Shown one piece after another: positions 1 through 9,855 of a stretch of DNA of 9,855 nt. The notes under the pieces are model-generated. The model did no database searches and was not told the DNA's origin. It saw nothing but the letters and a program-made list of their open reading frames with translations. The stretch is from a virus (taxonomy: Duplodnaviria > Heunggongvirae > Uroviricota > Caudoviricetes), in IMG/VR virus record IMGVR_UViG_2617270976_000011, positions 1-9,855 of that record. One strand, written 5' to 3'. Position numbers and translations under genes: made by a program. Position 1 is the stretch's first letter, and every line of letters begins with the position of its first letter.

Positions 1-996
1 TTATGGACGCATTATGGACATTCCTGACACCGGGTTAAGAGTCACAGCATCTTGTAAGAAATCCGGTGCAAAGTGTGCGTAGGTCATAGTTTGCTGAATG
101 TTAGAATGACCCAGGATGCGCTGCAATGTGATTATGTTACCTCCATTAATTATAAAATGTGTGGCAAATGTATGCCTCAAAACATGTACTGCTTGTCCGT
201 CAGGTAAATCGGGTTTTACTTCCCTGAGAGCGTTACGCACTTTGTAGTAACTGGCATTAAAAAGCCTGCCTGAATTTTTGGTCTTGATCCTTTTAATCAG
301 GTCCTGCGAAACGGGAATTGTCCTGCGCTTTCCGTTTTTAGTTTTCATAAACGTAACCATCTGGTTAATGATGTGTTCAGCTTTCAAATTAGACACTTCA
401 CTCCAGCGTCCACCAGTAGAAAGGCAGACTAGAGTTGCATTTAACTCATCACCATCAAGCATGGATAACAGCCGCGTAATCTCTTCACTGGACAAAAAAG
501 CCATTTCTGTAACAGCTTCACGTAACCGCTTAACCTCACGGAACGGGTTGTGAGAGTGGTATTCACCGGCGTCAATTAACTTGGTGAACATCCCGCTCAT
601 TATTGCCAGATGCCGATTTACGCTGGCTGGTTTTAGACCATCGTTCATCATTACAACTCGATAATCAGTTATCGTTTTCTTTGTTAACTGGTCAGCTCTG
701 GACACTCCCATTTCTGCAAATTTGGCGATTATTGTCGTCAAACGCCCCCGTTCAATATTTCCACGCTCATGTGATTTTCCGTGATATATCCACCATCTGC
801 CTAACAACTCTGTAAGAGTTCGGCGGTCGGCTGGCTTCTCCAGCCACTCTTTGTTGTGGTAGTTAACCAGCACATGACGTTCGAATGCTTGAGCTTCACC
901 TTTAGTTTTAAATTTCCGCCTGATACGTTTTCCATCTGCACCCTGCGGTCTGACGTCCACTTCATAACGACCATCATCGAGCTTTTTAATAGACAT
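1..996 (-). CDS. int: Phage tyrosine integrase, P2 family, complete (331 aa)
   Basis: Full-length minus-strand ORF. The C-terminal catalytic region has HxxR (HVLRHTFATHF) and a conserved Tyr (MTYAHFAPDF). The N-terminus MSIKKLDDGRYEV matches my recollection of P2 Int (337 aa). A GGAGGG Shine-Dalgarno lies just upstream of the ATG at 994-996. Confidence 0.9.
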   Translation of the reverse strand: MSIKKLDDGRYEVDVRPQGADGKRIRRKFKTKGEAQAFERHVLVNYHNKEWLEKPADRRTLTELLGRWWIYHGKSHERGNIERGRLTTIIAKFAEMGVSRADQLTKKTITDYRVVMMNDGLKPASVNRHLAIMSGMFTKLIDAGEYHSHNPFREVKRLREAVTEMAFLSSEEITRLLSMLDGDELNATLVCLSTGGRWSEVSNLKAEHIINQMVTFMKTKNGKRRTIPVSQDLIKRIKTKNSGRLFNASYYKVRNALREVKPDLPDGQAVHVLRHTFATHFIINGGNIITLQRILGHSNIQQTMTYAHFAPDFLQDAVTLNPVSGMSIMRP

Positions 997-1089
997 AAAG
1001 CCCTCCGATGACGCTGTTTACTTCTACTACTTGAAAATTAATGCAATTTTCTTTCGTACATTTACTGCACACATATGCTGAATAAATCG

Positions 1090-1401
1090 TCAGCCAGTCT
1101 TTTGGTCTGAGTGGTGCAAGGTTGTTGAGTCTTGCCCAATGTGCGCGAGCGCCGGGGCTATTTGTCCGCCAGCGGGATCAGTTTCATCAAACATGAACCA
1201 GTCACGGTACTTGCGAAATCTTTCTGGCTTGAAAAATTTCATACCTGCGTCAAAAGACATCTTTACTTTTCCCTGCTCATATCCAGCATAGGTGTTGTAG
1301 TTAATTCCAGTTAATTCAGCAACTTGCTTCCTTGTCATTCTTTCTGATTCCCGAATAAGTGCGAGTTTCTCTGCTTGAGATGTGATTTGTGTATTTGACA
1401 T
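1090..1401 (-). CDS. C: P2 C-type immunity repressor (about 103 aa)
   Basis: The track ORF (1090-1449) contains an internal Met at 1399-1401 that begins MSNTQITSQ, and its C-terminus GQIAPALAHIGQDSTTLHHSDQKTG matches my recollection of P2 C (99 aa). It lies immediately upstream of int on the same strand, as in P2. The 16 extra N-terminal codons in the track ORF are probably not translated. Confidence 0.8.
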   Translation of the reverse strand: MSNTQITSQAEKLALIRESERMTRKQVAELTGINYNTYAGYEQGKVKMSFDAGMKFFKPERFRKYRDWFMFDETDPAGGQIAPALAHIGQDSTTLHHSDQKTG

Positions 1402-1505
1402 GAATTGTCGTATCTCGTAATTTATGTTGTATGCGACACACCAGAACAACGCAGAGCGGCTTCAAATAGCTCTGGTTGAATGGCACCAAAGTTGAGGATA
1501 TCAAA
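1402..1505. promoter_or_regulatory. Immunity/early switch intergenic region between divergent C and cox starts (expected Pc/Pe promoters and repressor operators)
   Basis: 104-bp AT-rich spacer between the divergent start codons. It contains imperfect direct repeats TGTCGTAT (1406-1413) and TGTTGTAT (1425-1432). P2 C repressor is known to bind direct repeats; the specific sites here are not verified. Confidence 0.35.
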
Positions 1506-2690
1506 ATGAGTATTGGATCAGAAATGAATAACGATGTTGGAGAAAAAGTATCTGATCTCACAAAAAGTAAAAAATGTGACATCAAACTTGCAGCCGCACC
1601 GTCGGATTTGCTCTCGAAAGAGGGTTTTGCTCTTTACATCGGTAAGACGCCTCGCGCTGTTGCTGAAATGGCGAAAGCAGGCAAGTTACCAGCCTTTTAT
1701 ATGACGGACCCATTAAAGCCGGGCGGTCATGCTGAGTTATGGATTAACCGGGGCGGTGCTGCGGGGTATATCGCGAAATACATTTCAAAAAACATCGACG
1801 GCTATGCACTGGATGGTCAGCTCGATAACGACACCGGCAGGCCGCTGAAAGACACTGCCGCGGCTGTTACCGCATGGGCGTCAACGTGGCGCATTCCGCA
1901 ATTTAAAACGGTTGGCCTGCCGACAATGGGGGCTTACCGTGAACTACGCAAATTACCTCGCGGCGTCAGCATTGCTGATGAGTTTGACGAACGCGTCGAG
2001 GCTGCACGCGCTGCCGCAGACAGTGGCGATTTTGCGCTGTATATCAGCGCGCAGGGTGGGGCAAATGTCCCGCGCGATTGTCAGACTGTCAGGGTCGCCC
2101 GTAGTCCGTCGGATGAAGTTAACGAGTACGAGGAAGAAGTCGAGAGAGTGGTCGGCATTTACGCGCCGCATCTCGGCGCGCGTCATATTCATATCACCAG
2201 AACGACGGACTGGCGCATTGTTCCGAAAGTGCCGGTCGTTGAGCCTTTGACTTTAAAAAGCGGCATCGCCGCGCCTCGGAGTCCTGTCAATAACTGTGGA
2301 AAGCTTGCCGACGGTGGCGATCCAGTTATGACACCTACGCCGTCTGAGCATGCCGCAGCGGTGCTAAATCTTGTCGATGATGGGGTTATTGCATGGGATG
2401 ACCCCGAAGTTGTGACGGTGCTCAGGAGTGCATTAAAACACGGCGCGCCGCAGCAAAATCGACAGCAAAGAAGCGATGAGCCATTAAAATCGAATCAGAT
2501 AGCACCATCAGGGCGAATGACAAAAGCCGAGAGGGCTCAGATTCCGCGCATCCGCTTCGAACTGGCGCAGCAGGGTATCACGCCGCAGCGGTGGGAACTT
2601 CAGGCGCTGGCTCGTGGCGGAATAGTGGTTTATGGCGAAAAAAGATTTGTATACCCGATAGCGGACGAGTGGGTGAAGCATGAAGGGTGA
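1506..2690 (+). CDS. In-frame deletion fusion: Cox-like HTH N-terminus (about 80 aa) joined to the C-terminal ~310 aa of rolling-circle replication initiator gpA; probably a non-functional remnant
   Basis: The N-terminal segment FALYIGKTPRAVAEMAKAGKLPAFYMTDPLKPGGHAELWINR resembles P2 Cox. It runs directly into GYIAKYISKNIDGY, the paired-tyrosine (Y-x-x-x-Y) motif of phiX174/P2 A-type initiators. Gene B and the N-terminal ~450 aa of A are absent. A GAGGA Shine-Dalgarno precedes the ATG at 1506; the track ORF starts earlier at 1476. Confidence 0.7.
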   Translation: MSIGSEMNNDVGEKVSDLTKSKKCDIKLAAAPSDLLSKEGFALYIGKTPRAVAEMAKAGKLPAFYMTDPLKPGGHAELWINRGGAAGYIAKYISKNIDGYALDGQLDNDTGRPLKDTAAAVTAWASTWRIPQFKTVGLPTMGAYRELRKLPRGVSIADEFDERVEAARAAADSGDFALYISAQGGANVPRDCQTVRVARSPSDEVNEYEEEVERVVGIYAPHLGARHIHITRTTDWRIVPKVPVVEPLTLKSGIAAPRSPVNNCGKLADGGDPVMTPTPSEHAAAVLNLVDDGVIAWDDPEVVTVLRSALKHGAPQQNRQQRSDEPLKSNQIAPSGRMTKAERAQIPRIRFELAQQGITPQRWELQALARGGIVVYGEKRFVYPIADEWVKHEG

Positions 2691-2753
2691 TTTATATCCA
2701 TCTAAATCATGATGTTATGATGGCCGTGTGAGTTCTTTTCTGATTGGGGCTGC

Positions 2754-2928
2754 GTTCGACGGCTTGAAATGTTGTAAATGCTCATAATCTGGTTTAAAGT
2801 GTTTTTATGCCAACGACTAGGAGCATCTCCAGTCATAAATGTTGGCCTCTACAGGCCTTTATATAGTGTTGCTCTTGTACTGCCTTCTCTTTCGAGAGAA
2901 GGTATGTACAAGAAGTAAAGCCTGCGAA
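2754..2928 (+). ncRNA. Candidate retron msr-msd non-coding RNA (boundaries approximate)
   Basis: Non-coding leader directly upstream of, and co-oriented with, the RT gene. Candidate a1 TTCGACGGCTT (2754-2764) is complementary to candidate a2 AAGCCTGCGAA (2918-2928) at 9 of 11 positions, with a G immediately 3' of a1. A strong hairpin at 2876-2910 sits just 5' of a2, where an msd stem would be. Not confirmed by folding or covariance. Confidence 0.3.
2876..2910 (+). repeat. Inverted-repeat hairpin: 8-bp perfect core CCTTCTCT/AGAGAAGG with a TTCG (UUCG) tetraloop, extendable to about 15 pairs with one G-T wobble and a 1-nt bulge
   Basis: Read directly: 2883-2890 CCTTCTCT, loop 2891-2894 TTCG, 2895-2902 AGAGAAGG; outer arms TGTAC (2876-2880) and GTACA (2906-2910). 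Confidence 0.8.
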
Positions 2929-3016
2929 GGGAGGGTGTCTGGGGTGAGGAAAGACTGAGAGTTAAAGCATTCATCTTAGAATCCATTCAACTCAAAAAAC
3001 AAAAGCTCAGCCAACG

Positions 3017-4006
3017 ATGAAACCCCTTAGTCTCGAAAAAGCCTTCAATATTGCATTCTTCGAAAAAGATTCCTTTCAAAACTTTCTTTCGTTTGAACCA
3101 TTTCAACAAACTAAATTTATAACCTTTGATGAAAGGTTAATTGCTGAGCCCACTTCTAAACTAAAAGAGTATCACAAATTCATAAATGAATTTGTTCTTT
3201 CATACTTGAAAGTAAATAAGGATGTTGTGTTTTCGTATAGAAAAGGAAGCAGCACTTATGATGCAGTAAAACTTCACGCCTGTAGTAAGATATTCTTCAA
3301 TACTGATATTAAAAGCTTTTTCCCATCGATAACTCGTGAATATGCACGATCAGTTTTAGTTGATAACTTATCGAACGTTCCCATTTCCGATTTAAATATA
3401 CACTTGGATAAAATTTTAGATTATATTATTATCGATAATTCGTTGCCTGTAGGGTTCCCGACATCACCAGCTTTCAGCAATGCATGTTTATATGACTTTG
3501 ATGTTGAGATGCAGCAATATTGTATTAACCATGAATATATATTCACACGCTATTCAGATGATATTATTATTTCCTCTGAAAATGATGAGGGCTTTGAGAA
3601 TATTCATTCTGTAGTAAGTGACCTGCTGGGTGAGTTTGGGAAGGGACATTTCAAACTAAACTCAGCAAAAACTAAATTGATTAAAAAAGGCAGTAAGATT
3701 AAGCTGCTGGGGATGGTTATTTTACCGTCTCAGATAGTCTCTGTTGATATTAAAATAAAAAGAAAGCTTGAGCATTTGATTCATTTTTATGTAACGGATA
3801 AAGATAAATTTATAGATTCTATAATAAAAGATCCTAAGGTTAAAACTAGCGGATTGAATGATAGTGAGATCTTGGAAAAGGGCGTTAATACAGTTTCTGG
3901 TCTTTTGAATCATATAAACACAATTGATAAGAGTTATCTCGATAAGCTAAAGAGAAAATACGGAAATACGATTGTCGATATGCTTTTTTACAAGAATGTA
4001 AATTAA
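3017..4006 (+). CDS. Reverse transcriptase, retron-type (329 aa)
   Basis: RT motifs are in canonical order: SSTYDAVKLHA (NAxxH-like box, residues 78-88), DIKSFFPSI (motif A, 97-105), LPVGFPTSPAFSN (QG-P-SP box, 143-155), YSDD catalytic box (179-182, nt 3551-3562), LLGMVI (230-235). Small size, no maturase or endonuclease domain, a non-coding structured leader upstream and an effector gene downstream all fit a retron. AT-rich coding sequence. Confidence 0.85.
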   Translation: MKPLSLEKAFNIAFFEKDSFQNFLSFEPFQQTKFITFDERLIAEPTSKLKEYHKFINEFVLSYLKVNKDVVFSYRKGSSTYDAVKLHACSKIFFNTDIKSFFPSITREYARSVLVDNLSNVPISDLNIHLDKILDYIIIDNSLPVGFPTSPAFSNACLYDFDVEMQQYCINHEYIFTRYSDDIIISSENDEGFENIHSVVSDLLGEFGKGHFKLNSAKTKLIKKGSKIKLLGMVILPSQIVSVDIKIKRKLEHLIHFYVTDKDKFIDSIIKDPKVKTSGLNDSEILEKGVNTVSGLLNHINTIDKSYLDKLKRKYGNTIVDMLFYKNVN

Positions 4007-4007
4007 A

Positions 4008-5360
4008 ATGAAAATAAATATTGAGATCTCGAAAATCCAGCATGTTGAACATATGTCATTTGCTATTGATCTTTCTGAAAATAAACTGACTTGCATTGTA
4101 GGAAAGAACGGTGCTGGAAAGACAACGCTAATCAAAGCAATTAAAAATTTACAATCAGCAGATACATTCATAAAGACATCTTCTAGATATATATTCAATC
4201 CTGACAGTAGTATAGTATATAATATTAATGATCAAGATATAGTATATGTCTATGATGAGAATTTGAAGGTAATAGATACTAAGCAAATAATTCCAGCAGA
4301 TATAAAATCCAATCTTTATGTCGAGTTGCCCATTCCTCATGGAATGAGGTTCAATAACTTCCCAACACTTAGTAAAATTGATACTGAACTTAGAAAAAGT
4401 ATTGCGTTTGAAAGCTATAGCGTTCCCGAGGATTTGATAAATATACTCAATGAGGTATATCAGTCTTCTTCTTACAATAATCTTAAAGCATTTTCTGTAA
4501 AAAATGAAATTTTCTATTTCAGATTGAATGAGAACGGAACATACATAAGGGAGGATTACTTTAGCTCGGGTGAGTATTTTATTTTGAATTTATTTAGAAT
4601 GATTGAGCTCAAAAGAAAATTCATTGTCATAGATGAGATAGATATATCACTAGACTCTTCGGCGCAAGTCCATCTTATAGCAGTGCTAAGGAAATATTGT
4701 CAGAGACACTCGGTGAATATTGTATTCACAACACATTCACTTGCTTTAATGCAAACGCTGAATGATGATGAATTGTACTATATGTGCGAAGGTGATGCTG
4801 GAACTACAATTACAAATCGATCATATAATTATATAAAAAGTACGCTTTTTGGATTTAAAGGATGGGATAAGTACATTCTTACTGAAGATGAAGTTCTGCA
4901 AAATTTCTTAGAATATATAATTAATGCTCCTGGGAATGATTACTTCTACGAATATAAAATAATATATGTTGGTGGAGGAACTAATGTCATTGATTTAATG
5001 CGTCGTAATGAGAGAGAGAGCTTTCTCACGACTCAACAGAATGTGATCTCAGTGTTAGACGGAGATCAATTAGGTCAAAGGCATGCTCGAGGTGAAAATA
5101 TTTTATGCATACCTTTCCAAAGCGTTGAGAAGGATTTCTATCAAGCATACGGCCAAGATGAATCGATCCCGAGAGTTACAACTAGAGGTAACGATAAACT
5201 TGATAAGCAAGTTTATCGAGGGGTAGTGAAAACCTATGACAACGGCTGGGATGAAACTAGGATTTTTGAATACCTTGAGAGGTTAAAGCCTGATGAATGT
5301 GAGGCTTTCAGGCAAAAAATTAGAGCATTTCTCCAAAGAAATATTTCGGCAGAGGGTTGA
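4008..5360 (+). CDS. OLD-family ABC-type ATPase with C-terminal TOPRIM-like nuclease domain (450 aa); probable retron effector
   Basis: Walker A GKNGAGKTT (residues 32-40, nt 4101-4127), ABC-signature-like FSSGE (185-189), Walker B FIVIDEID (205-212), H-loop TTHS (241-244). The C-terminal half has TOPRIM-like acidic residues: ILTEDEV (Glu ~293) and VLDGDQ (DxD, 351-353). The ATG lies 1 nt after the RT stop (TAA 4004-4006, ATG 4008-4010). Confidence 0.8.
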   Translation: MKINIEISKIQHVEHMSFAIDLSENKLTCIVGKNGAGKTTLIKAIKNLQSADTFIKTSSRYIFNPDSSIVYNINDQDIVYVYDENLKVIDTKQIIPADIKSNLYVELPIPHGMRFNNFPTLSKIDTELRKSIAFESYSVPEDLINILNEVYQSSSYNNLKAFSVKNEIFYFRLNENGTYIREDYFSSGEYFILNLFRMIELKRKFIVIDEIDISLDSSAQVHLIAVLRKYCQRHSVNIVFTTHSLALMQTLNDDELYYMCEGDAGTTITNRSYNYIKSTLFGFKGWDKYILTEDEVLQNFLEYIINAPGNDYFYEYKIIYVGGGTNVIDLMRRNERESFLTTQQNVISVLDGDQLGQRHARGENILCIPFQSVEKDFYQAYGQDESIPRVTTRGNDKLDKQVYRGVVKTYDNGWDETRIFEYLERLKPDECEAFRQKIRAFLQRNISAEG

Positions 5361-5502
5361 ATATAAGCTTCGGGATCTCATGCCTCTCTATCTGCATGAA
5401 ATTGCATTTGATAATTCCTATTTTTCTCGTGAACTGTGTCACGTTAGGCGCAGCTCAGGGCTCATAATGCATCTGCATTAAAACCGCCCCACGAAGCGGG
5501 CG

Positions 5503-5521
5503 GGCGAGGCGGGGAAAGCAC
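5503..5521. other. Candidate P2-type cos cohesive-end sequence GGCGAGGCGGGGAAAGCAC
   Basis: The 19-mer matches my recollection of the P2 19-nt cohesive end. It sits in a GC-rich non-coding stretch between the cargo cassette and head/tail remnants, which is where cos lies in a P2 prophage (between old and Q). Identification is from memory, not a search. Confidence 0.5.
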
Positions 5522-5663
5522 TGCGCGCTGGCGGTGGTGCTGATTTTATTTTTTCAGCGTCTGAGCGCGTCGTGAAGGCGTTTACTTGGCCTGCTGGGGC
5601 GTTGGTGTGTCTGCGGGATTTTTTGTGCGGTGATGAGCGTGTGAGGGCGTGATGACAGGGTAT

Positions 5664-5685
5664 AAAAAAGCCGCCCGCAGGCGGC
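5664..5685 (-). terminator. Intrinsic terminator-like hairpin for leftward transcription (GCCGCC-TGCG-GGCGGC followed by TTTTTT on the minus strand)
   Basis: Plus strand shows AAAAAA (5664-5669), GCCGCC (5670-5675), CGCA loop, GGCGGC (5680-5685). This lies immediately downstream of the minus-strand ORF stop at 5691-5693. Confidence 0.55.
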
Positions 5686-5690
5686 GATGT

Positions 5691-6209
5691 TCAGCCGTTG
5701 TCAGTGTCCAGTGAGTAGTTTTTAAAGCGGATGACCTCCTGACCGAGCCAGCCGTTTATCTCGCGGATCCTGTCCTGTAGCGGGATAAGCTCATTGCGGA
5801 CAAAGACCTTTGCCACTTTCTCAATATCACCCAGCGACCCGACGTTCTCCGGCTTGCCTCCCATCAACTGAAAGGGGATGCGGTGCGCGTCCAGCAGGTC
5901 AGCGGCGCTGGCTTTTTTGATATTAAAAAAATCGTCCTTCGTTGCGACTTCACTGAGCGGGATAATTTTAATGCCGTCGGCTTTCCCCTGCGGGGCATAG
6001 AGAAACAGATTTTTAAAGTTGTTGCGGCCTTTCGACTTGACCATGTTTTCGCGAATACGGGATGCGTGACCGTTCAGCTCGCGCAGTGATTTTTGTGTTT
6101 CCCGGATATCCCCCGACAGCGACCTGCTCGCTGTACGGATGGATTTAAACGGGCGGGATGCCTGGTCAACAGCCCTGAGCAATACCTGTAATTTTACATT
6201 GTTACTCAT
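5691..6209 (-). CDS. Chimeric ORF (172 aa): N-terminal ~60 aa consistent with the start of tape-measure gene T, fused to a ~110-aa portal-like (gpQ-like) C-terminal segment
   Basis: Its ATG (6207-6209) overlaps the stop of the upstream E' frame (TAA 6203-6205) as ATGAGTAA, the position expected for the start of T after E/E'. The C-terminal part (AHRIPFQLMGG ... NELIPLQDRIREINGWL) resembles a conserved C-terminal portal motif. Its own frame is closed by a TGA 18 codons upstream of the ATG. Confidence 0.45.
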   Translation of the reverse strand: MSNNVKLQVLLRAVDQASRPFKSIRTASRSLSGDIRETQKSLRELNGHASRIRENMVKSKGRNNFKNLFLYAPQGKADGIKIIPLSEVATKDDFFNIKKASAADLLDAHRIPFQLMGGKPENVGSLGDIEKVAKVFVRNELIPLQDRIREINGWLGQEVIRFKNYSLDTDNG

Positions 6210-6491
6210 TCGTGTTTCCGCTTCGCCGGAGCGCCTTTTCGCGCCATGTGATGAGTTCGGTCAGGCTCATGGGATACAGTTCTGATGGCGGCCAGTGAAA
6301 TATCACAGCCACATCCGCCATCAGGTCATCGACCGAGAGATTTTTCGGAAACGTCACTGCACCGAGTTCGGCGACAAAAAACCGACCACCTTACCGGCCA
6401 GCGCCACAAGGTCAGGCAGTTCCAGCGCGGCGACTTCCTGCTCGGTCAGAACAGGTAAAGCTGCTGATAGCGACCGGAGGCCGTGGATTTT
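6203..6491 (-). pseudogene. 5'-truncated remnant of tail assembly chaperone genes E and E+E' (programmed -1 frameshift pair)
   Basis: Minus-strand frame 0 reads ...LTEQEVAALELPDLVALAGKVVGFLSPNSVQ-stop, with no start codon and an in-frame stop at 6492-6494. The -1 frame continues from the slippery site as FFVAELGAVTFPKNLSVDDLMADVAVIFHWPPSELYPMSLTELITWREKALRRSGNTNE-stop. Seven codons after the slip in frame 0 and a 58-codon extension fit the 91-aa and 142-aa sizes I recall for P2 E and E+E'. Confidence 0.5.
6375..6381 (-). other. -1 programmed ribosomal frameshift slippery heptamer T_TTT_TTG
   Basis: Plus strand is CAAAAAA at 6375-6381, i.e. TTTTTTG on the minus strand, positioned in frame as X_XXY_YYZ seven codons before the frame-0 stop. 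I recall the same heptamer as the P2 E/E' frameshift site. Confidence 0.5.
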
Positions 6492-6526
6492 TCACCGCGA
6501 CGGTTAAACACCTTCGCCGGTCGACC

Positions 6527-9256
6527 ATGTGCGAACGGGTGGTCACTGTAGTCGGTGAAGATTTCCGGCTTTCCCAGCAGGATTTCAGCCGCTTTGTGCT
6601 GGATTTTCTGGTGTTCGGTAATGCGTTTCTGGAAAAGCGTTACAGCACCACCGGTAAGGTCATCAGACTGGAAACCTCACCGGCAAAATATACCCGCCGT
6701 GGTGTGGAGGAGGATGTTTACTGGTGGGTGCCGTCCTTCAACGAGCCGACAGCCTTCGCGCCCGGCTCCGTGTTTCACCTGCTGGAGCCGGATATTAATC
6801 AGGAGCTGTACGGCCTGCCGGAATATCTCAGCGCCCTTAACTCTGCCTGGCTGAATGAGTCAGCCACGCTGTTCCGCCGCAAGTATTACGAAAACGGCGC
6901 ACATGCCGGATACATCATGTACGTCACTGATGCCGTGCAGGATCGCAACGATATCGAAATGCTTGAGGGATTCCGCAAGACCAGTGCACAGCTTGCCGTG
7001 ACTGGTCATGCACTTGAAAAGGCTCGGCAGGAAGCCGAAGCCCTTGCCACACAGTTTAAAAACACCGAACGTCCGACCCGTGCTCAGGCGAAAGTGCTGG
7101 AATCCGCAAAGCGTGCGGCGGAGGACTTACAGGCGAAATATAACCGCCTGACGGATTCCGTTAAACGCCAGCAGCGGGAACTGGCCGCTGTGGGAATTAA
7201 TACCCGCAATCTTGCACATGATGAGCAGGGACTGAAAAACCGTATCAGTGAAACCACCGCACAGCTTAACCGTCAGCGTGATGCGCTGGCGCGTGTCAGT
7301 GCGCAACAGGCAAAACTTAACGCAGTCAAACAGCGTTATCAGGCCGGAAAGGAACTGGCCGGAAATATGGCCTCAGTAGGCGCTGCCGGTGTGGGGATTG
7401 CGGCGGCGGGAACGATGGCCGGAGTTAAATTGCTGATGCCCGGTTATGAGTTTGCGCAGAAAAACTCAGAATTGCAGGCCGTGCTCGGAGTGGCAAAAGA
7501 CTCCGCCGAAATGACCGCACTCCGCAAGCAGGCGCGCCAGCTCGGCGACAATACCGCAGCCTCGGCAGATGATGCAGCCGGTGCACAGATAATCATTGCG
7601 AAAGCGGGTGGAGATGCTGCGGCTATTCAGGCAGCAACGCCGGTCACACTGAATATGGCACTGGCAAACCAGCGGTCGATGGAAGAAAACGCGCAATTGT
7701 TGCTGGGGACTAAGGCATCCTTTCAACTGTCAAATGATGATGTCAGCCATGTGGGCGACGTGTTGTCGGCAACGATGAATAAGTCGGCGGCTGATTTTCA
7801 GGGACTCAGTGATGCACTGACTTACCTCGGCCCGGTTGCGAGGACGGCAGGTGTAAGTATTGAGCAGGCAGCGGCCATGACCGGTGTGCTGCATGACAAT
7901 AACATCAGGGGGTCAATGGCGGGTACGGGTAGCAGTGCCGTTGTCACCCGATTACAGGCACCGACTGGAAAAGCATGGGATGCACTCAAAGAGCTTGGCG
8001 TTAAAACCTCGGACAAAAAGGGAAATATGCGTCCGTTGTTCACCATTCTGAAAGAGATTCAGGCCAGCTTTGATAAGCATAAGCTGGGAACGTCTCAGAA
8101 GGGGGAATACCTTAAAACCATTTTTGGTGAGGAAGCCCTGAAATCAGCGAACGTTTTACTGGCAGCGGCAGCAAGCGGAAAACTGGATACGCTGACCGCC
8201 ACGCTGAAAGCCTCGGACGGTAAAACGGAAGAGCTGGTTAAAATCATGCAGGATAACCTCGGCGGTGACTTTAAGGAGTTTCAGTCCGCTTATGAGGCGG
8301 TGGGGACTGACCTGTTTGACCAGCAGGAAGGCGCACTGCGTAAGCTCACTCAGACGGCCACAAAGTATGTGTTAAAACTCGACGGCTGGATCCAGAAAAA
8401 CAAATCACTGGCGTCAACCATCGGCCTCATTGTCGGTGGCGCGCTGGCGCTTATTGGCATCATCGGTGCCATTGGTCTTGTCGCCTGGCCGGTTATCACC
8501 GGCATCAATGCCATTATCGCGGCAGCAGGCGCAATGGGGGCAATCTTCACGACGGTTAGCAGTGCTGTTATGACGGCCATCGGGGCGATTAGCTGGCCGG
8601 TTGTGGCCGTGGTGGCCGCCATTGTCGCCGGGGCGTTGCTTATCCGTAAATACTGGGAGCCTGTCAGCGCATTCTTTGGCGGTGTGGTGGAAGGGCTGAA
8701 AGCGGCATTTGCGCCGGTGGGGGAACTGTTCACGCCACTGAAGCCGGTGTTTGACTGGCTGGGTGAAAAGTTACAGGCCGTGTGGCAGTGGTTTAAAAAC
8801 CTGATTGCCCCGGTCAAAGCCACCCAGGACACCCTGAACCGTTGCCGTGACACGGGCGTTATGTTCGGGCAGGCACTGGCTGACGCGCTGATGCTGCCGC
8901 TTAATGCGTTCAACAAACTGCGCAGCGGTATTGACTGGGTACTGGAAAAACTCGGTGTTATCAACAAAGAGTCAGACACACTTGACCAGACCGCCGCAAG
9001 GACTCATGCCGCCACGTATGGCACCGGTGGTTATATTCCGGCGACCAGCTCTTATGCTGGCTATCAGGCTTATCAGCCGGTCACGGCACCGGCTGGCCGC
9101 TCTTATGTGGACCAGAGTAAAAACGAATATCACATCAACCTGACGGGCGGTACTGCGCCGGGGACACAGCTCGACCGCCAGTTACAGGATGCGCTCGAAA
9201 AATACGAGCGGGATAAACGTGCGCGCGCCCGTGCCAGCATGATGCATGACGGTTAA
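6527..9256 (+). CDS. Chimeric long ORF (909 aa): N-terminal ~150-aa portal-like segment fused in frame to ~745 aa of phage tail tape-measure protein (gpT-like)
   Basis: From about residue 160 onward the protein has a long coiled-coil region, a conserved tape-measure core (ASFQLSNDDVSHVGDVLSATMNKSAADFQGLSDALTYLGPVARTAGVSIEQAAAMTGVLHDNN) and Gly/Ala/Ile-rich hydrophobic segments. The first ~150 residues (e.g. FRRKYYENGAHAGYIMYVTDAVQDRNDIEMLEG) are unlike tape measure and look portal-like. No Shine-Dalgarno precedes the ATG, and the frame is open back to 6299 without a start. Confidence 0.75.
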   Translation: MCERVVTVVGEDFRLSQQDFSRFVLDFLVFGNAFLEKRYSTTGKVIRLETSPAKYTRRGVEEDVYWWVPSFNEPTAFAPGSVFHLLEPDINQELYGLPEYLSALNSAWLNESATLFRRKYYENGAHAGYIMYVTDAVQDRNDIEMLEGFRKTSAQLAVTGHALEKARQEAEALATQFKNTERPTRAQAKVLESAKRAAEDLQAKYNRLTDSVKRQQRELAAVGINTRNLAHDEQGLKNRISETTAQLNRQRDALARVSAQQAKLNAVKQRYQAGKELAGNMASVGAAGVGIAAAGTMAGVKLLMPGYEFAQKNSELQAVLGVAKDSAEMTALRKQARQLGDNTAASADDAAGAQIIIAKAGGDAAAIQAATPVTLNMALANQRSMEENAQLLLGTKASFQLSNDDVSHVGDVLSATMNKSAADFQGLSDALTYLGPVARTAGVSIEQAAAMTGVLHDNNIRGSMAGTGSSAVVTRLQAPTGKAWDALKELGVKTSDKKGNMRPLFTILKEIQASFDKHKLGTSQKGEYLKTIFGEEALKSANVLLAAAASGKLDTLTATLKASDGKTEELVKIMQDNLGGDFKEFQSAYEAVGTDLFDQQEGALRKLTQTATKYVLKLDGWIQKNKSLASTIGLIVGGALALIGIIGAIGLVAWPVITGINAIIAAAGAMGAIFTTVSSAVMTAIGAISWPVVAVVAAIVAGALLIRKYWEPVSAFFGGVVEGLKAAFAPVGELFTPLKPVFDWLGEKLQAVWQWFKNLIAPVKATQDTLNRCRDTGVMFGQALADALMLPLNAFNKLRSGIDWVLEKLGVINKESDTLDQTAARTHAATYGTGGYIPATSSYAGYQAYQPVTAPAGRSYVDQSKNEYHINLTGGTAPGTQLDRQLQDALEKYERDKRARARASMMHDG

Positions 9257-9270
9257 GGAGGTGACGAAAA

Positions 9271-9555
9271 ATGATGCTCGCGTTAGGTATGTTTGTTTTT
9301 ATGCGCCAGACGCTGCCACACCAGACCATGCAGCGTGAATCAGATTATCGCTGGCCGTCAAATTCCCGTACCGGTCGTGCAGATATTTACACGGAAACAC
9401 CGGTCAGAGTGTCAGGCTTTAAGCGCGTCATAGACGAGCAGGACTGGACAATCACTAAGGTGACACATTTTCTGAATAATAGCGGCTTCACGACGTCCTT
9501 AGAGCTTGAGGTCAGGCTTTCTGATGTGGAGTACGAAACAGAAGATTATGAGTGA
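9271..9555 (+). CDS. Truncated tail protein remnant (94 aa): gpU-like N-terminus, possibly fused to a gpD-like C-terminus
   Basis: A strong AAGGAGGTGA Shine-Dalgarno (9255-9264) precedes the ATG, 15 nt after the T stop, which is where U sits in the P2 FETUD operon. At 94 aa it is far shorter than U (about 159 aa) or D (about 387 aa), so an internal deletion is likely. The U/D fusion point is inferred, not demonstrated. Confidence 0.45.
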   Translation: MMLALGMFVFMRQTLPHQTMQRESDYRWPSNSRTGRADIYTETPVRVSGFKRVIDEQDWTITKVTHFLNNSGFTTSLELEVRLSDVEYETEDYE

Positions 9556-9636
9556 TGTATTTTGTTTATCTGTTTGTTTTATAAGGATAAATTAACTAAA
9601 ATGGCAACATCAACAAAACCGGAAGAGGTGCTCGCG

Positions 9637-9855
9637 ATGTTTCATTGTCCTTTATGCCAGCATGCCGCACATGCGCGTACAAGCCGCTATATCACTGACA
9701 CGACAAAAGAGCGTTATCACCAGTGTCAGAACGTGAATTGCAGCGCCACGTTCATAACTTATGAGTCGGTACAGCGATACATCGTGAAGCCGGGAGAAGT
9801 CCACGCCGTAAGGCCGCACCCGTTGCCGTCAGGGCAGCAAATTATGTGGATGTAA
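9637..9855 (+). CDS. ogr: Ogr late-gene transcriptional activator, C4 zinc-finger (72 aa)
   Basis: Sequence MFHCPLCQHAAHARTSRYITDTTKERYHQCQNVNCSATFITYESVQRYIVKPGEVHAVRPHPLPSGQQIMWM matches my recollection of P2 Ogr, including the CxxC...CxxxxC zinc-finger cysteines. The track ORF (from 9562) carries 25 extra N-terminal codons that are probably not translated; 9601 is an alternative start. Confidence 0.85.
   Translation: MFHCPLCQHAAHARTSRYITDTTKERYHQCQNVNCSATFITYESVQRYIVKPGEVHAVRPHPLPSGQQIMWM

Follow-up and report, generated by a model that had tools for sequence, protein, structure and literature searches.

A probable type I-B1 retron cassette at the gene A-to-cos cargo site of a decayed P2-like prophage of Escherichia coli

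Composition of the cassette and its reverse transcriptase

The stretch of DNA analysed here (the window, 9,855 nt, positions 1 to 9,855 of IMG/VR record IMGVR_UViG_2617270976_000011) carries a cassette in a decayed P2-like prophage of E. coli. The cargo span, 2691-5502, is bounded on the left by gene A, the 3' end of which is at 2690, and on the right by the cos site (5503-5521), and comprises an RNA element followed by the genes of a reverse transcriptase (RT) and of an effector protein. These features and their boundaries are as follows:

1476..2690, + strand: left boundary, context outside the system; chimeric ORF joining the Cox N-terminus to the C-terminal ~310 aa of replication protein A via a 3.2-kb deletion
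2772..2800, + strand: predicted sigma-70 promoter of the ncRNA(-RT-effector) unit; -35 TTGTAA at 2772-2777, 17-nt spacer, -10 TAAAGT at 2795-2800
2807..2807, + strand: predicted transcription start, the A of a conserved CAUG, 7 nt after the -10 hexamer, from promoter geometry
2809..2846, + strand: 5' RNA "handle"; stem P1 (GCCAAC 2809-2814 / GUUGGC 2841-2846) around hairpin P2, then AUAAAU
2847..2868, + strand: conserved linker CUCUAC-AG-GCCUUUAU-AUAGUG; a1-like strand CAGGCCUUU at 2852-2860; candidate branching G2866 and G2868
2852..2924, + strand: long msd-like hairpin; outer a1-like/a2-like helix CAGGC 2852-2856 / GCCUG 2920-2924
2925..3016, + strand: spacer or 5' UTR from the hairpin to the RT; purine-rich GGGAGGGUGUCUGGGGUGAGG at 2929-2949, possible partner UUCAUCUUAGAAUCC at 2970-2984, second GCCAAC at 3010-3015
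3017..4006, + strand: retron RT, 329 aa; catalytic YSDD at residues 179-182 in "TRYSDDIIIS"
4008..5360, + strand: effector, 450 aa; N-terminal ABC/SMC-type ATPase and C-terminal alpha/beta domain
5503..5521, + strand: right boundary, context; P2-type cos site, an exact match to the 19-nt cosR of P2, GGCGAGGCGGGGAAAGCAC

The two genes are separated by one base, the RT stop codon TAA occupying 4004-4006 and the effector ATG following at 4008. Both had been read from the letters in a preliminary description, as a 329-aa RT with an intact YSDD and a 450-aa ABC-ATPase protein 1 nt downstream of it, and both readings hold, including Walker A K38 of the latter.

Profile searches also confirmed the retron affiliation proposed there for the RT, its best matches being all retron RT models rather than group II intron, DGR or Abi/UG enzymes. 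The PADLOC model RT_I-B PDLC02937 covers residues 3-328 of 329 (E 6.5e-110), each of the top 25 PADLOC matches is a retron RT model, and the group II intron, Drt2 and Drt3 models reach only E values of 1e-10 to 1e-12. Matches to Pfam RVT_1 (E 8e-19) and to NCBIfam retron_St85_RT (177 bits) were also recorded, and the closest solved relatives are the retron RTs 22et, Ec78 and Ec83. Residues D97, Y179, D181, D182, K218 and G232 are invariant across the family. The "VTG" signature carried in motif 7 by most retron RTs (PMC8632793) is absent from this motif, which reads K-L-L-G-M in the window and [LI]LG throughout the family, G alone being invariant; the "VTG" of PDB 22et aligns with the "LLG" of the window RT. 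As the source says "most", its absence is not disqualifying for retron status. By its nearest characterised relatives, namely Ec78, Ec83 and the St85 family, the enzyme would belong to RT clade 1, together with the I-A and II-A1 RTs.

The effector in turn matches PADLOC ATPase-Toprim_I-B PDLC02914 over residues 1-443 (E 1.6e-179), and all the related loci that were examined, with RTs 40-100% identical, retain the order RT-then-effector. Mestre et al. (2020) describe type I-B1 as combining RT clade 1, ncRNA family IB1 and, downstream, an effector of cluster 22_2 ("class 3B OLD") with the motifs EDxxL and DxD; in the window these correspond to TEDEVL (T-E293-D-E-V-L, motif IV) and D351-G-D353 (motif V). 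A related locus found through RT homology (RT 45% identical) carries, verbatim, the ncRNA of Mestre-308, a retron of Atopomonas (Pseudomonas) hussainii labelled I-B1 in a retron census. Mestre-308 shares with the window the order ncRNA-RT-effector, an effector with an ABC ATPase and an EDxxL/DxD domain (RT 45%, effector 50% identity), and an RNA with the same handle, linker and hairpin layout: the hairpin GACUAGGAG-NNN-CUCCAGUC, the CUCUA linker, the GCCUUUAU element and a long hairpin, as expected for ncRNA family IB1. By contrast, the window belongs to an AT-rich enterobacterial P2-prophage lineage, only 92 nt of conserved spacer separate its hairpin from the RT gene, and the sequence of its long hairpin is unrelated. 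The predicted ncRNA of the second census I-B1 retron, Mestre-314, is unrelated.

Thus, gene order, the TEDEVL motif, the closeness to Ec78/Ec83/St85-type RTs and the Mestre-308 relative indicate subtype I-B1 rather than I-B2, and the cassette is probably a type I-B1 retron with a class 3B OLD-type effector, kept as intact cargo in the gene A-to-cos hotspot of a decayed P2-like E. coli prophage. In a literature search, no defence phenotype, trigger, structure or gel-visible msDNA was found reported for any I-B1 member. The subtype is known from bioinformatics alone, and the window cassette is an ordinary further member of it.

RNA element, promoter and branch point

A retron-type ncRNA, with an RT-recognition stem-loop (2809-2846) and a long msd hairpin (2852-2924), lies next to the RT gene. 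In the handle, P1 shows compensatory changes at 4/5 pairs, and P2, GACUAGGAG-CAU-CUCCAGUC at 2815-2834, is invariant in 17/17 loci found via the proteins, with RT identities of 40-100%. No Rfam family matches the RNA element. The handle is similar to a conserved part of the msr in the clade-1 retrons Ec83, St85 and Mestre-56, namely the hairpin together with CUAAUUUAUU. CUCUA, GCC and UUUA of the linker are invariant, or nearly so, across relatives. The long hairpin has the inner helices UUGCU 2869-2873 / AGUAA 2914-2918, CUUGUAC 2874-2880 / GUACAAG 2906-2912 and CCUUCUCU 2883-2890 / AGAGAAGG 2895-2902, with the loop UUCG. In the two inner helices 12/17 pairs have compensatory changes, and the sequence of the hairpin tip varies freely between relatives. 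Covariation of the outer helix is confined to the enterobacterial subfamily (AGGCCUU:AAGGCCU, AAGCCUU:AAGGUUU, AGGCCUU:AAGGUCU). The spacer at 2925-3016 is ~90-95% conserved in the closest subfamily and unalignable beyond it; RNAalifold pairs its segments 2929-2949 and 2970-2984, with one-sided changes only.

The preliminary description had placed a structured non-coding leader from 2691 onwards. Its structure is real, the leader folding better than shuffled sequences (z = -3.4; 0/100 shuffles as good) and the RNA core of 24 relatives having 94% of cells paired, vs 33-44% in slid controls (0/500 shuffles as good), with compensatory changes at 16/30 pairs; but the conserved element begins only at ~2807, and 2691-2771 is unconserved among relatives. 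The comparison of promoter and RNA covered about 80 loci. The element is linked to the RT and effector genes on the same strand at 103/123 sites, and on the opposite strand at no fewer than 9 more.

At the window, the promoter matches 8/12 consensus positions and was unlisted by a generic promoter scan. Among 79 distinct related loci, TTG stands at exactly -43 in 61% (and at -42 in a further 16%), and 71% have TAnnnT at -20; at other offsets the background for these motifs is 1-3%. In the opposite-strand loci, where RT and effector are inverted, the RT start codon lies 63-90 nt upstream of the hairpin (up to ~160 in two loci), leaving space for a promoter of the 2772-2800 type only. This supports a predicted transcript start near A2807.

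This promoter position and the divergent loci leave no room for a canonical 5' module of a1 and branching G, so that an upstream a1 is unlikely. The preliminary proposal of a type I-B retron made of RT, ncRNA and OLD-type effector holds for the two proteins, which match the PADLOC I-B models end to end, and for the covarying ncRNA, but a canonical flanking a1/a2 pair and a branching G were not identified with confidence. Pairing between the flanks of the RNA element gave no helix above shuffled controls (21.2 vs 20.7), in a test of such low power that 19, the score expected for the AU-rich 8-bp repeats a1/a2 of Ec83, falls under the null of ~21. Inside the transcript, a short a1-like/a2-like helix (2852-2860 / 2917-2924), which covaries within the subfamily only, flanks the hairpin with a G-containing junction loop, in the canonical geometry.

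As regards the branching guanosine itself, the census reports a "TTA-G" context, the equivalent position of which is a U in the window and in 20/85 family members; UUUAG or UCUAG occurs in 21/85 members, the window having UUUAU. Throughout the subfamily of the window the hairpin stem is immediately preceded by a G, and G2866 and G2868 are, by position, candidate branching guanosines. The G of the conserved CAUG was considered in this role and excluded, being 69% conserved and covarying as a base pair.

Two I-B1 retrons were assayed in the census, both with "RT-DNA production 0 by PAGE". For Mestre-308 one 116-nt product was sequenced; it runs through both hairpins and past every candidate branch G, beginning at the 3' foot of the long hairpin and reaching the first base of P1. 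The census constructs were built on predicted ncRNA ends and lacked the effector, and the predicted 5' end of Mestre-308 overlaps the promoter as read here; its PAGE failure may be a construct artefact.

Considering these observations, we advance, as a tentative and somewhat doubtful reading, that I-B1 "retrons", the E. coli cassette included, have a rearranged ncRNA. Transcription would start directly at the RT-recognition hairpin, and the a1/branch-point module would be located downstream of this hairpin, against the template hairpin with no msr between them, or be absent, cDNA priming and termination being then unlike those of all described retrons; in some lineages the RNA gene might even form a separate, divergently transcribed unit. 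Such a layout would account for the missing msDNA band in the two tested members. In functional terms, a permuted or reduced ncRNA of this kind could go with a non-canonical mechanism, possibly without a stable branched msDNA, in which cDNA is made at low level or during infection only, a behaviour shared with some defence-associated RTs, and in which the RNA-RT particle, not a constitutive msDNA, controls the effector. The absence of space upstream of the handle, the flank test, the two PAGE results and the Mestre-308 product, LLG in place of VTG and the U at the "TTA-G"-equivalent position all point in this direction. Against them stand the low power of the helix test, the canonical geometry of the subfamily helix, the possible failure of the census constructs and the RT itself, which is nested firmly among canonical clade-1 retron RTs; on balance we regard a non-canonical mechanism as possible but doubtful.

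Effector domains, prophage setting and related systems

The N-terminal part of the effector has all the features of OLD-family ABC ATPases, namely Walker A G32-T40 (GKNGAGKTT, K38), the signature S187-G-E189, Walker B D209-E210 and the H-loop H243. P2 Old, a class 1 OLD protein with an exclusion function, is likewise prophage-encoded between gene A and cos and has an ABC ATPase followed by an E...DxD domain. It differs in being 586 aa long, acting alone, being transcribed leftward and containing the Pfam OLD-like TOPRIM (PF20469), which is not found in the 450-aa window effector. The sequence similarity of the two is remote: BLASTP relates them at the P-loop (E 0.004), and a profile alignment of the full-length effector with the P2 Old family stays in register from Walker B to the start of the TOPRIM domain (prob 89%, E 2e-6), aligning ILTED with Old LVEGK and E293 with Old E398. 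The AlphaFold model of the effector (pLDDT 87) finds as its best full-length Foldseek match the T. scotoductus OLD nuclease 6p74 (E 8e-13).

Taken alone, the C-terminal 173 aa gave no Pfam TOPRIM match in any of the 36 family members (0/36), none in a profile search of PDB sequences and no significant one with Foldseek (pLDDT 83), the P2 Old family profile scoring only E 0.076. These results would suit an effector that is an ATPase with no nuclease domain, its C-terminus being a regulatory or RNA/RT-binding module and killing proceeding via another partner, ATP depletion or DNA clamping. We consider this improbable: E293 (within ILTEDEVL), D351 and D353 are unchanged in 36 effector sequences at 48-94% identity and are placed, in a predicted beta-alpha-beta-alpha-beta unit, where strands 1 and 3 end, the spacing from E to DxD is 58 aa vs 55 in P2 Old, and both the in-register alignment and the best full-length fold match lead to OLD nucleases. 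Of the OLD-type ABC-ATPase/TOPRIM protein initially described, the OLD-type ATPase stands, while the TOPRIM fold, suggested only by motifs, spacing and one in-register profile alignment, was not confirmed independently by the domain searches. Mestre et al. independently assigned the same domain as TOPRIM.

Both remarks of the preliminary description on the setting of the cassette, its AT-richness and its placement between the end of gene A and cos at the variable tin/old position of P2-like phages, proved correct. The G+C content is 0.28-0.40 over 3000-5250 vs 0.53-0.60 in the flanking phage genes, and homology to P2 gene A (86% identity of 1744-2672 with its 3' part) stops at 2690. The same slot is filled by orf91-tin-old in P2 itself, by other RTs or TIR proteins in other genomes, and is the cargo hotspot described by Rousset et al. 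(2022; PMC9122126), to which the cassette corresponds both in site, between gene A and cos/portal Q, and in the alternative cargos of relatives. The RT-effector pair is flanked by Phage_GPA and Phage_portal genes in loci of Enterobacter, Kosakonia, Dickeya, Yersinia, Erwinia and E. coli, and in the intact prophages of LR-45 and A15 the cassette lies between A and Q. It is present at ≥98% identity in 10/5426 complete E. coli genomes, on two P2-like backbones and at two attachment sites, which fits mobile cargo.

The host prophage no longer has cox-B-A(5'), D or most of its structural genes, and an inversion fuses portal and tape-measure fragments. In its chimeric ORF, Pfam Phage_Cox covers residues 36-92 and is joined to the C-terminus of Phage_GPA, and at the deletion junction the window (1744-1750) jumps from position 4864 to 8054 of the intact LR-45 prophage. 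This decay, in an arrangement absent from all complete E. coli genomes of the collection, could mean that the cassette has become an inert relic, neither expressed nor functional any more, within a dead prophage, and expression in the source strain is not assured. Nevertheless, both ORFs are full length and encode proteins 100% identical to those of intact prophages, no change is seen in the promoter or the RNA core, and decay halts at the borders of the cassette, with gene A kept up to 2690 and cos intact at 5503. Cargo kept in a decaying prophage would usually be a sign of host benefit, and we judge a relic to be unlikely.

Among related systems, the type I-A retrons Ec78/Eco7 and Ec83/Eco4 encode an RT, a PtuA ATPase and a separate PtuB HNH nuclease, whereas in the window a TOPRIM-like domain is fused to the ATPase; their ncRNA opens with a1 (GCUCUUUA) and a branching G upstream of the hairpin, while transcription in the window appears to begin at the hairpin. 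Retron-Eco8 (type I-B2, class 3A OLD), also tripartite with an ABC-ATPase/TOPRIM effector, is the sole OLD-type retron whose mechanism is known: phage SSB binds the msDNA of a tetrameric assembly, and DNA is then degraded (PMC13402713). The resemblance to Eco8 suggested in the preliminary description, and with it a tetrameric RT-msDNA-OLD complex activated by phage SSB on msDNA to degrade DNA, is highly improbable, type I-B2 membership being refuted by gene order (effector upstream of ncRNA-RT in Eco8), motif (EGxxE in Eco8 vs EDxxL), RT distance (the clade 3 Eco8 RT matches at E 4e-8, behind Ec78, Ec83, Ec86 and Ec67, and the second PADLOC RT_I-B model scores 115 bits vs 365 for the first) and effector mismatch (no sequence match to the Eco8 OLD protein, whose deposited chain of 738 aa is ~290 aa longer).

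Proposed mechanism and significance

For the type I-B1 cassette, a working mechanism can be drawn from two kinds of analogue: type I-A retrons, whose RTs are of the same clade and whose ATPase is related, and Retron-Eco8, whose effector is built alike. It follows PMC13402713 for Eco8 and the papers on Ec78/Eco7. The sigma-70 promoter at 2772-2800 would start an RNA at ~A2807 that opens with the conserved hairpin 2809-2846, putatively bound by the RT, followed by the linker and the long variable hairpin 2852-2924, and that probably continues as mRNA for the RT (3017-4006) and the ATPase/TOPRIM-like effector (4008-5360). The RT would reverse-copy the long hairpin into DNA, and the resulting RT-RNA-DNA particle would keep the effector inactive in a complex. 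A cue from the phage, by binding, modifying or degrading the DNA or RNA part, might then free an ATP-dependent nuclease, which would destroy nucleic acid and abort the infection, so protecting the lysogen population and the prophage.

As an E. coli-native I-B1 member in a P2 prophage, the cassette offers the most convenient experimental entry to the subtype, with its own host and promoter and the usual panel of coliphages at hand. The comparative map provides targets for constructs and point mutants, namely the promoter, the predicted 2807 start, the handle, the linker, the covarying hairpin and the candidate branch Gs, and suggests a reason why earlier constructs on predicted ncRNA ends may have failed. 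Should the RNA layout prove canonical, the cassette would simply add a retron to a prophage hotspot already known for defence systems; if it is truly non-canonical, the definition of a retron would widen, with relevance to retron-based DNA-production tools.

Retron type and prophage setting

The protein-coding genes of the cassette, together with two chimeric ORFs of the surrounding prophage, are the following.

3017-4006, plus strand: RT ORF of 329 aa, containing 'TRYSDDIIIS'
4008-5360, plus strand: effector ORF of 450 aa, 1 base after the RT stop codon, with the Walker A motif GKNGAGKTT near its start
5691-6209, minus strand: tape-measure::portal chimeric ORF created by inversion
6527-9256, plus strand: tape-measure::portal chimeric ORF created by inversion

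RT and effector genes display a G+C content of 0.28-0.40, compared with 0.53-0.60 in the adjoining phage genes. They are flanked on the left by an ORF ending at 2690, in which a Cox domain is joined to the C-terminal part of replication protein A, and on the right by an exact match to the 19-nt cos of phage P2 (5503-5521), phage P2 itself carrying orf91, tin and old in the corresponding interval. With the ORFs, the G+C content and both flanks confirmed, the preliminary description was factually correct in all that it observed here, namely two ORFs with an intact YSDD and a 1-nt gap, of low G+C, between the end of A and cos.

Upon comparison with PADLOC models, the RT matched RT_I-B (PDLC02937) over residues 3-328 with an E value of 6.5e-110, the other strong matches being retron RT models throughout and those for group II introns, Drt2 and Drt3 reaching only 1e-10 to 1e-12. 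The best matches of this enzyme are thus retron models, and not those of group II intron, DGR or Abi/UG reverse transcriptases. Among solved structures, its nearest sequences are 22et, 'Retron' by name (E 3e-22), Ec78 (1e-19) and Ec83 (2e-16), followed by Ec86 and Ec67 (2e-11 to 3e-11) and by Eco8 (4e-8).

Two subtypes of type I-B were separated by Mestre et al. (2020): I-B1, with RT clade 1, effector cluster 22_2 and TOPRIM motifs EDxxL and DxD, and I-B2, with RT clade 3, cluster 159_1 and motifs EGxxE and DxD. A later review describes the former as 'class 3B OLD', with the effector downstream, and the latter as 'class 3A OLD', with the effector upstream and Retron-Eco8 as its representative. 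In the cassette, the effector lies downstream of the RT, its motif reads T-E-D-E-V-L and the RT falls alongside clade-1 RTs; moreover, a relative found via the RT in Atopomonas hussainii (L034, 45% RT identity) contains verbatim the ncRNA of Mestre-308, labelled I-B1 in the published retron census. On these grounds, the cassette is a real, intact and correctly located type I-B1 retron. The retron and type I-B readings of the preliminary description consequently stand, while its proposed likeness to Retron-Eco8 fails on gene order, motif and RT.

I-B1 is a known, purely bioinformatic subtype, of which the cassette is a further member and not an Eco8 relative. The table of Mestre et al. (2020) lists no described retron under it, and literature searches on I-B1, class 3B, the RefSeq proteins and the RNA motif returned bioinformatic mentions and the census only, with no paper on an I-B1 phenotype or structure. 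One passage in the section 'Retrons' of PMC8632793 looks like a slip, and could mislead searches for I-B1 experiments.

The cassette is present at 98-99.9% identity in 10 of 5426 complete E. coli genomes, chromosomal in every case and annotated just as 'reverse transcriptase family protein' and 'AAA family ATPase', and is without match in the phage GenBank collection. In the intact P2-like prophages of strains LR-45 and A15 it sits between gene A and the portal gene, on unlike backbones integrated at unlike sites (pflA and yegR). This slot is also filled by remoter RT-effector pairs in Enterobacter, Kosakonia, Dickeya, Yersinia and metagenomic contigs; in Photorhabdus, Pseudomonas, Methylomonas and Shewanella, by contrast, the pair is found free-standing. 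Relative to LR-45, the prophage of the window shows a 3.2-kb deletion fusing cox to the 3' part of A, the loss of most of D and of nearly all head and tail genes, and an inversion joining tape-measure and portal fragments into the two chimeric ORFs, which a 132-bp lysis-region fragment separates. Junctions lie near 1744-1750, 6053/6054, 6443-6449, 6567-6574, 6963 and 9369-9375, and the arrangement is absent from the complete E. coli genomes of the collection. The cassette and its borders are untouched by these events.

Some carriers exhibit additional small genes between effector and portal gene, coding for a DUF2188 protein in Enterobacter (L011/L012, 5130-5354) and for an Ogr/Delta-family protein in Dickeya (L017, 5334-5654), so that the A-to-portal hotspot can hold a retron plus further cargo. 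In Photorhabdus luminescens DSM 3368 (L004, 3952-5250), the effector homologue is split into four tblastn segments in differing frames and is therefore probably a pseudogene; the effector is intact in three sister Photorhabdus species. Within the window, a G+C-rich hairpin (5484-5503, CCGCCC-N8-GGGCGG) conserved with phage P2 adjoins cos and is followed on the minus strand by a T-run, being terminator-like for leftward transcription; the plus strand between the effector gene and cos shows no terminator-like site. An ORF of 62 aa (5293-5481, plus strand), doubtful as a gene, begins within the 3' part of the effector gene and heads towards cos.

The effector and its C-terminal domain

The effector matched the PADLOC model ATPase-Toprim_I-B (PDLC02914) over residues 1-443 (E 1.6e-179). 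By sequence, solved structures provided no close relative, only generic ABC ATPases at E 1e-5 or worse, with the Eco8 OLD protein not among them. Across 36 members sharing 48-94% identity, G32, K38, T39, T40, S187-G-E189, D209-E210, H243, E293 and D351-G-D353 are invariant. The AlphaFold model (pLDDT 87) presents, behind an ABC/SMC-type head, a beta-alpha-beta-alpha-beta unit whose strand 1 is followed by E293 and whose strand 3 is followed by D351xD353. Its top Foldseek match is the Thermus scotoductus OLD nuclease (E 8e-13), ahead of retron I-A PtuA ATPases, SMC heads, GajA and Septu PtuA.

When taken alone, the C-terminal 173 residues gave a Pfam TOPRIM match in no member, no sequence match in a PDB profile search, no significant Foldseek match, and a non-significant E of 0.076 against the family profile of Old, the OLD protein of phage P2 (hhalign). 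The full-length profile, on the other hand, aligned with the Old family from Walker B to the H-loop and then continued in register into the start of the Old TOPRIM, putting ILTED(E293) on LVEG(E398) with a probability of 89% and E 2e-6; the spacing from E to DxD is 58 residues in the effector and 55 in Old. The C-terminal domain is thus likely a TOPRIM. The proposed ABC-ATPase is borne out, and comparison with OLD families agrees with the expected kinship both in the top Foldseek match and in the Old profile; the TOPRIM assignment is supported by motifs, spacing and profile alignment, and not by the isolated-domain tests.

Promoter and architecture of the RNA

Upstream of the RT gene, the following features are distinguished.

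2772-2777 (TTGTAA) and 2795-2800 (TAAAGT), plus strand: predicted sigma-70 promoter, 17-nt spacer, conserved in position
2809-2814 (GCCAAC) with 2841-2846 (GUUGGC), plus strand: stem P1, compensatory changes in 4 of 5 pairs
2815-2834, plus strand: invariant hairpin P2, enclosed by P1
2847-2862, plus strand: single-stranded conserved linker CUCUAC...GCCUUUAU
2869-2918, extendable to 2852-2924, plus strand: long hairpin, its stem covarying and its tip varying freely

The 20-nt hairpin motif GACUAGGAG-NNN-CUCCAGUC precedes the RT in all 17 loci found via the protein. Scanning viral and metagenomic contigs for it yielded 156 sites, and a same-strand RT homologue lies downstream in 103 of the 123 with enough downstream sequence. 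In at least 9 of the other 20, RT and effector are encoded upstream by the opposite strand, and the sites left look like chance matches. Across 24 distinct aligned sequences, 94% of the cells form pairs, compared with 33-44% when partners are slid, and 16 of 30 pairs show compensatory changes, values that none of 500 shuffles reaches. At E <= 1, the leader matches no retron or other relevant family of Rfam 15. Hairpin P2 and the A/U-rich tract after it are similar to the msr hairpin conserved in the clade-1 retrons Ec83, St85 and Mestre-56.

Among 79 distinct loci, TTG occurs at exactly -43 from the hairpin motif in 61% (a further 16% at -42) and TAnnnT at -20 in 71%, against a background of 1-3% at other offsets, and these elements are the only conserved features upstream of P1. 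The window promoter matches 8 of 12 positions, and for that reason was not listed by a generic scan with a threshold of 9. In divergent loci, the RT start codon lies on the other strand mostly 63-90 nt upstream of the motif (up to ~160 in two), which leaves room for a promoter of this type and little else. Considering the conserved promoter position and this spacing, we infer from sequence comparison that transcription sets in at the foot of P1; a conserved CAU after the -10 fits a predicted start at A2807. The leader had previously been drawn from 2691, and 2691-2771 is instead an unconserved spacer among relatives.

The divergent loci (L025, L048, L050, L059, L070, L087, L126, L128 and L153, from metagenome and viral contigs), whose ncRNA gene is transcribed away from the RT-effector operon, form a subgroup that shares 35-44% RT and 40-50% effector identity with the window proteins; their linker is CUCUAGGCCGUCUGAUCUAC, and UCUAC...GUAGA flanks the long hairpin. 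In the window, the 8-nt GCCAACGA is present twice, in the P1 5' strand (2809-2816) and overlapping the RT start codon (3010-3017). Both copies are possible partners of GUUGGC 2841-2846, and for close relatives RNAalifold picked the distal one. A structural switch linked to translation of the RT is thereby hinted at, the repeat being limited to the closest subfamily. Several relatives, and not the window, carry short tandem repeats in the spacer between long hairpin and RT gene (CAAATAGG x4, CTACAG x4 and CCCCGCT ~15x; L016 ~2380-2415, L033 ~4500-4525 and L026 downstream of the hairpin).

Proposed priming layout, published experiments and probable working

Described retrons present the transcript order a1, branching G, msr hairpins, msd hairpin and a2. 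Given the predicted start, nothing precedes the msr-like hairpin in the window RNA. Helices joining the upstream 150 nt to the sequence beyond the long hairpin scored 21.2, versus 20.7 in shuffled controls, in a test blind to an 8-bp AU-rich pair as in Ec83 (which would score 19), and RNAduplex between the flanks gave z-scores near 0.

Individual candidates were also discarded. The a1/a2 pair 2721-2734 / 3004-3013 from a single-sequence fold draws on sequence upstream of the predicted RNA start, forms only with a 4-nt bulge and is mismatched in most close relatives (window, GCUCAGCC; others, GCCCAGCC); pairing of pyrimidine-rich 2733-2741 with purine-rich 2926-2937 likewise involves sequence upstream of the start and is of low complexity. 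The upstream 'CTTG', as branching-G context, is the promoter -35 region, and a branch point in the conserved CAUG was rejected because its G is 69% conserved and covaries as the first P1 pair. As a1, conserved CCUCUA shows no enrichment of a downstream complement (11.4 vs 11.5 in shuffles), and neither does the 7-mer before UUUA family-wide (12.2 vs 11.9), this latter holding in some subfamilies only, that of the window included.

The GCCUUUAU element resembles the 'a1 + TTA-G' of clade-1 retrons (GCUCUUUA-G); 21 of 85 family members have UUUAG or UCUAG at this point, and the window has UUUAU. In the subfamily of the window, CAGGCCUU (2852-2859) and AAAGCCUG (2917-2924), the latter immediately following the hairpin, form a covarying helix, and in the junction loop UAUAUAGUG G2868 is invariant and G2866 nearly so. 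These features suggest a retron-like layout with the RT handle 5' of a1 and almost nothing between branch G and template, which appears the most economical reading, if not cleanly general to all subfamilies. If true, it predicts a ~50-nt cDNA complementary to 2869-2919.

In the census, two I-B1 retrons were expressed in E. coli as RT plus predicted ncRNA, the effector being left out, and both are recorded as 'RT-DNA production 0 by PAGE'. No RT-DNA was sequenced for Mestre-314. For Mestre-308, a 116-nt product was sequenced, which starts opposite the A-run at the long hairpin's 3' foot and ends opposite the first P1 base. Its start fits the proposed junction; its end does not, since the product traverses every candidate branch G and the handle. 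In L034 (~2190-2210), the census ncRNA begins 7 nt upstream of the predicted start, its 5' TGCATGC lying between the -10 hexamer TATACT and CAUG, i.e., in the promoter discriminator as read here, and it ends 31 nt after the long hairpin; on account of both boundaries, construct and native RNA may not match. For other non-producing clades, the census authors considered a possibly non-canonical ncRNA. A non-canonical I-B1 RNA, starting at the RT handle and with its a1/branch module either displaced downstream of it or absent, would accord with the empty region ahead of that handle, and is rather less likely than not. The comparative evidence suggests an I-B1 RNA that starts at the RT handle with no obvious canonical a1/branch module.

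In Retron-Eco8, RT, msDNA-RNA and OLD effector form an autoinhibited tetramer, and phage SSB binding to the msDNA leads to DNA degradation and abortive infection (PMC13402713). In type I-A retrons, the PtuAB ATPase-nuclease is reportedly restrained by RT-msDNA until infection. By analogy with both systems, the RT-RNA(-cDNA) particle of the cassette probably sequesters the ATPase-nuclease, which a phage cue on the nucleic-acid part would free. Of this, the sequences themselves show the three parts, their conserved linkage, the conserved catalytic residues, and carriage at a prophage site on record as a hotspot of anti-phage systems (PMC9122126).

As cargo of the P2 hotspot, the cassette will hardly surprise a specialist. 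Its secondary value resides in the comparative evidence on where I-B1 RNA may start and on its apparently missing canonical a1/branch module, and its main one in giving access, with E. coli as the native host, to a retron subtype that is still uncharacterised.
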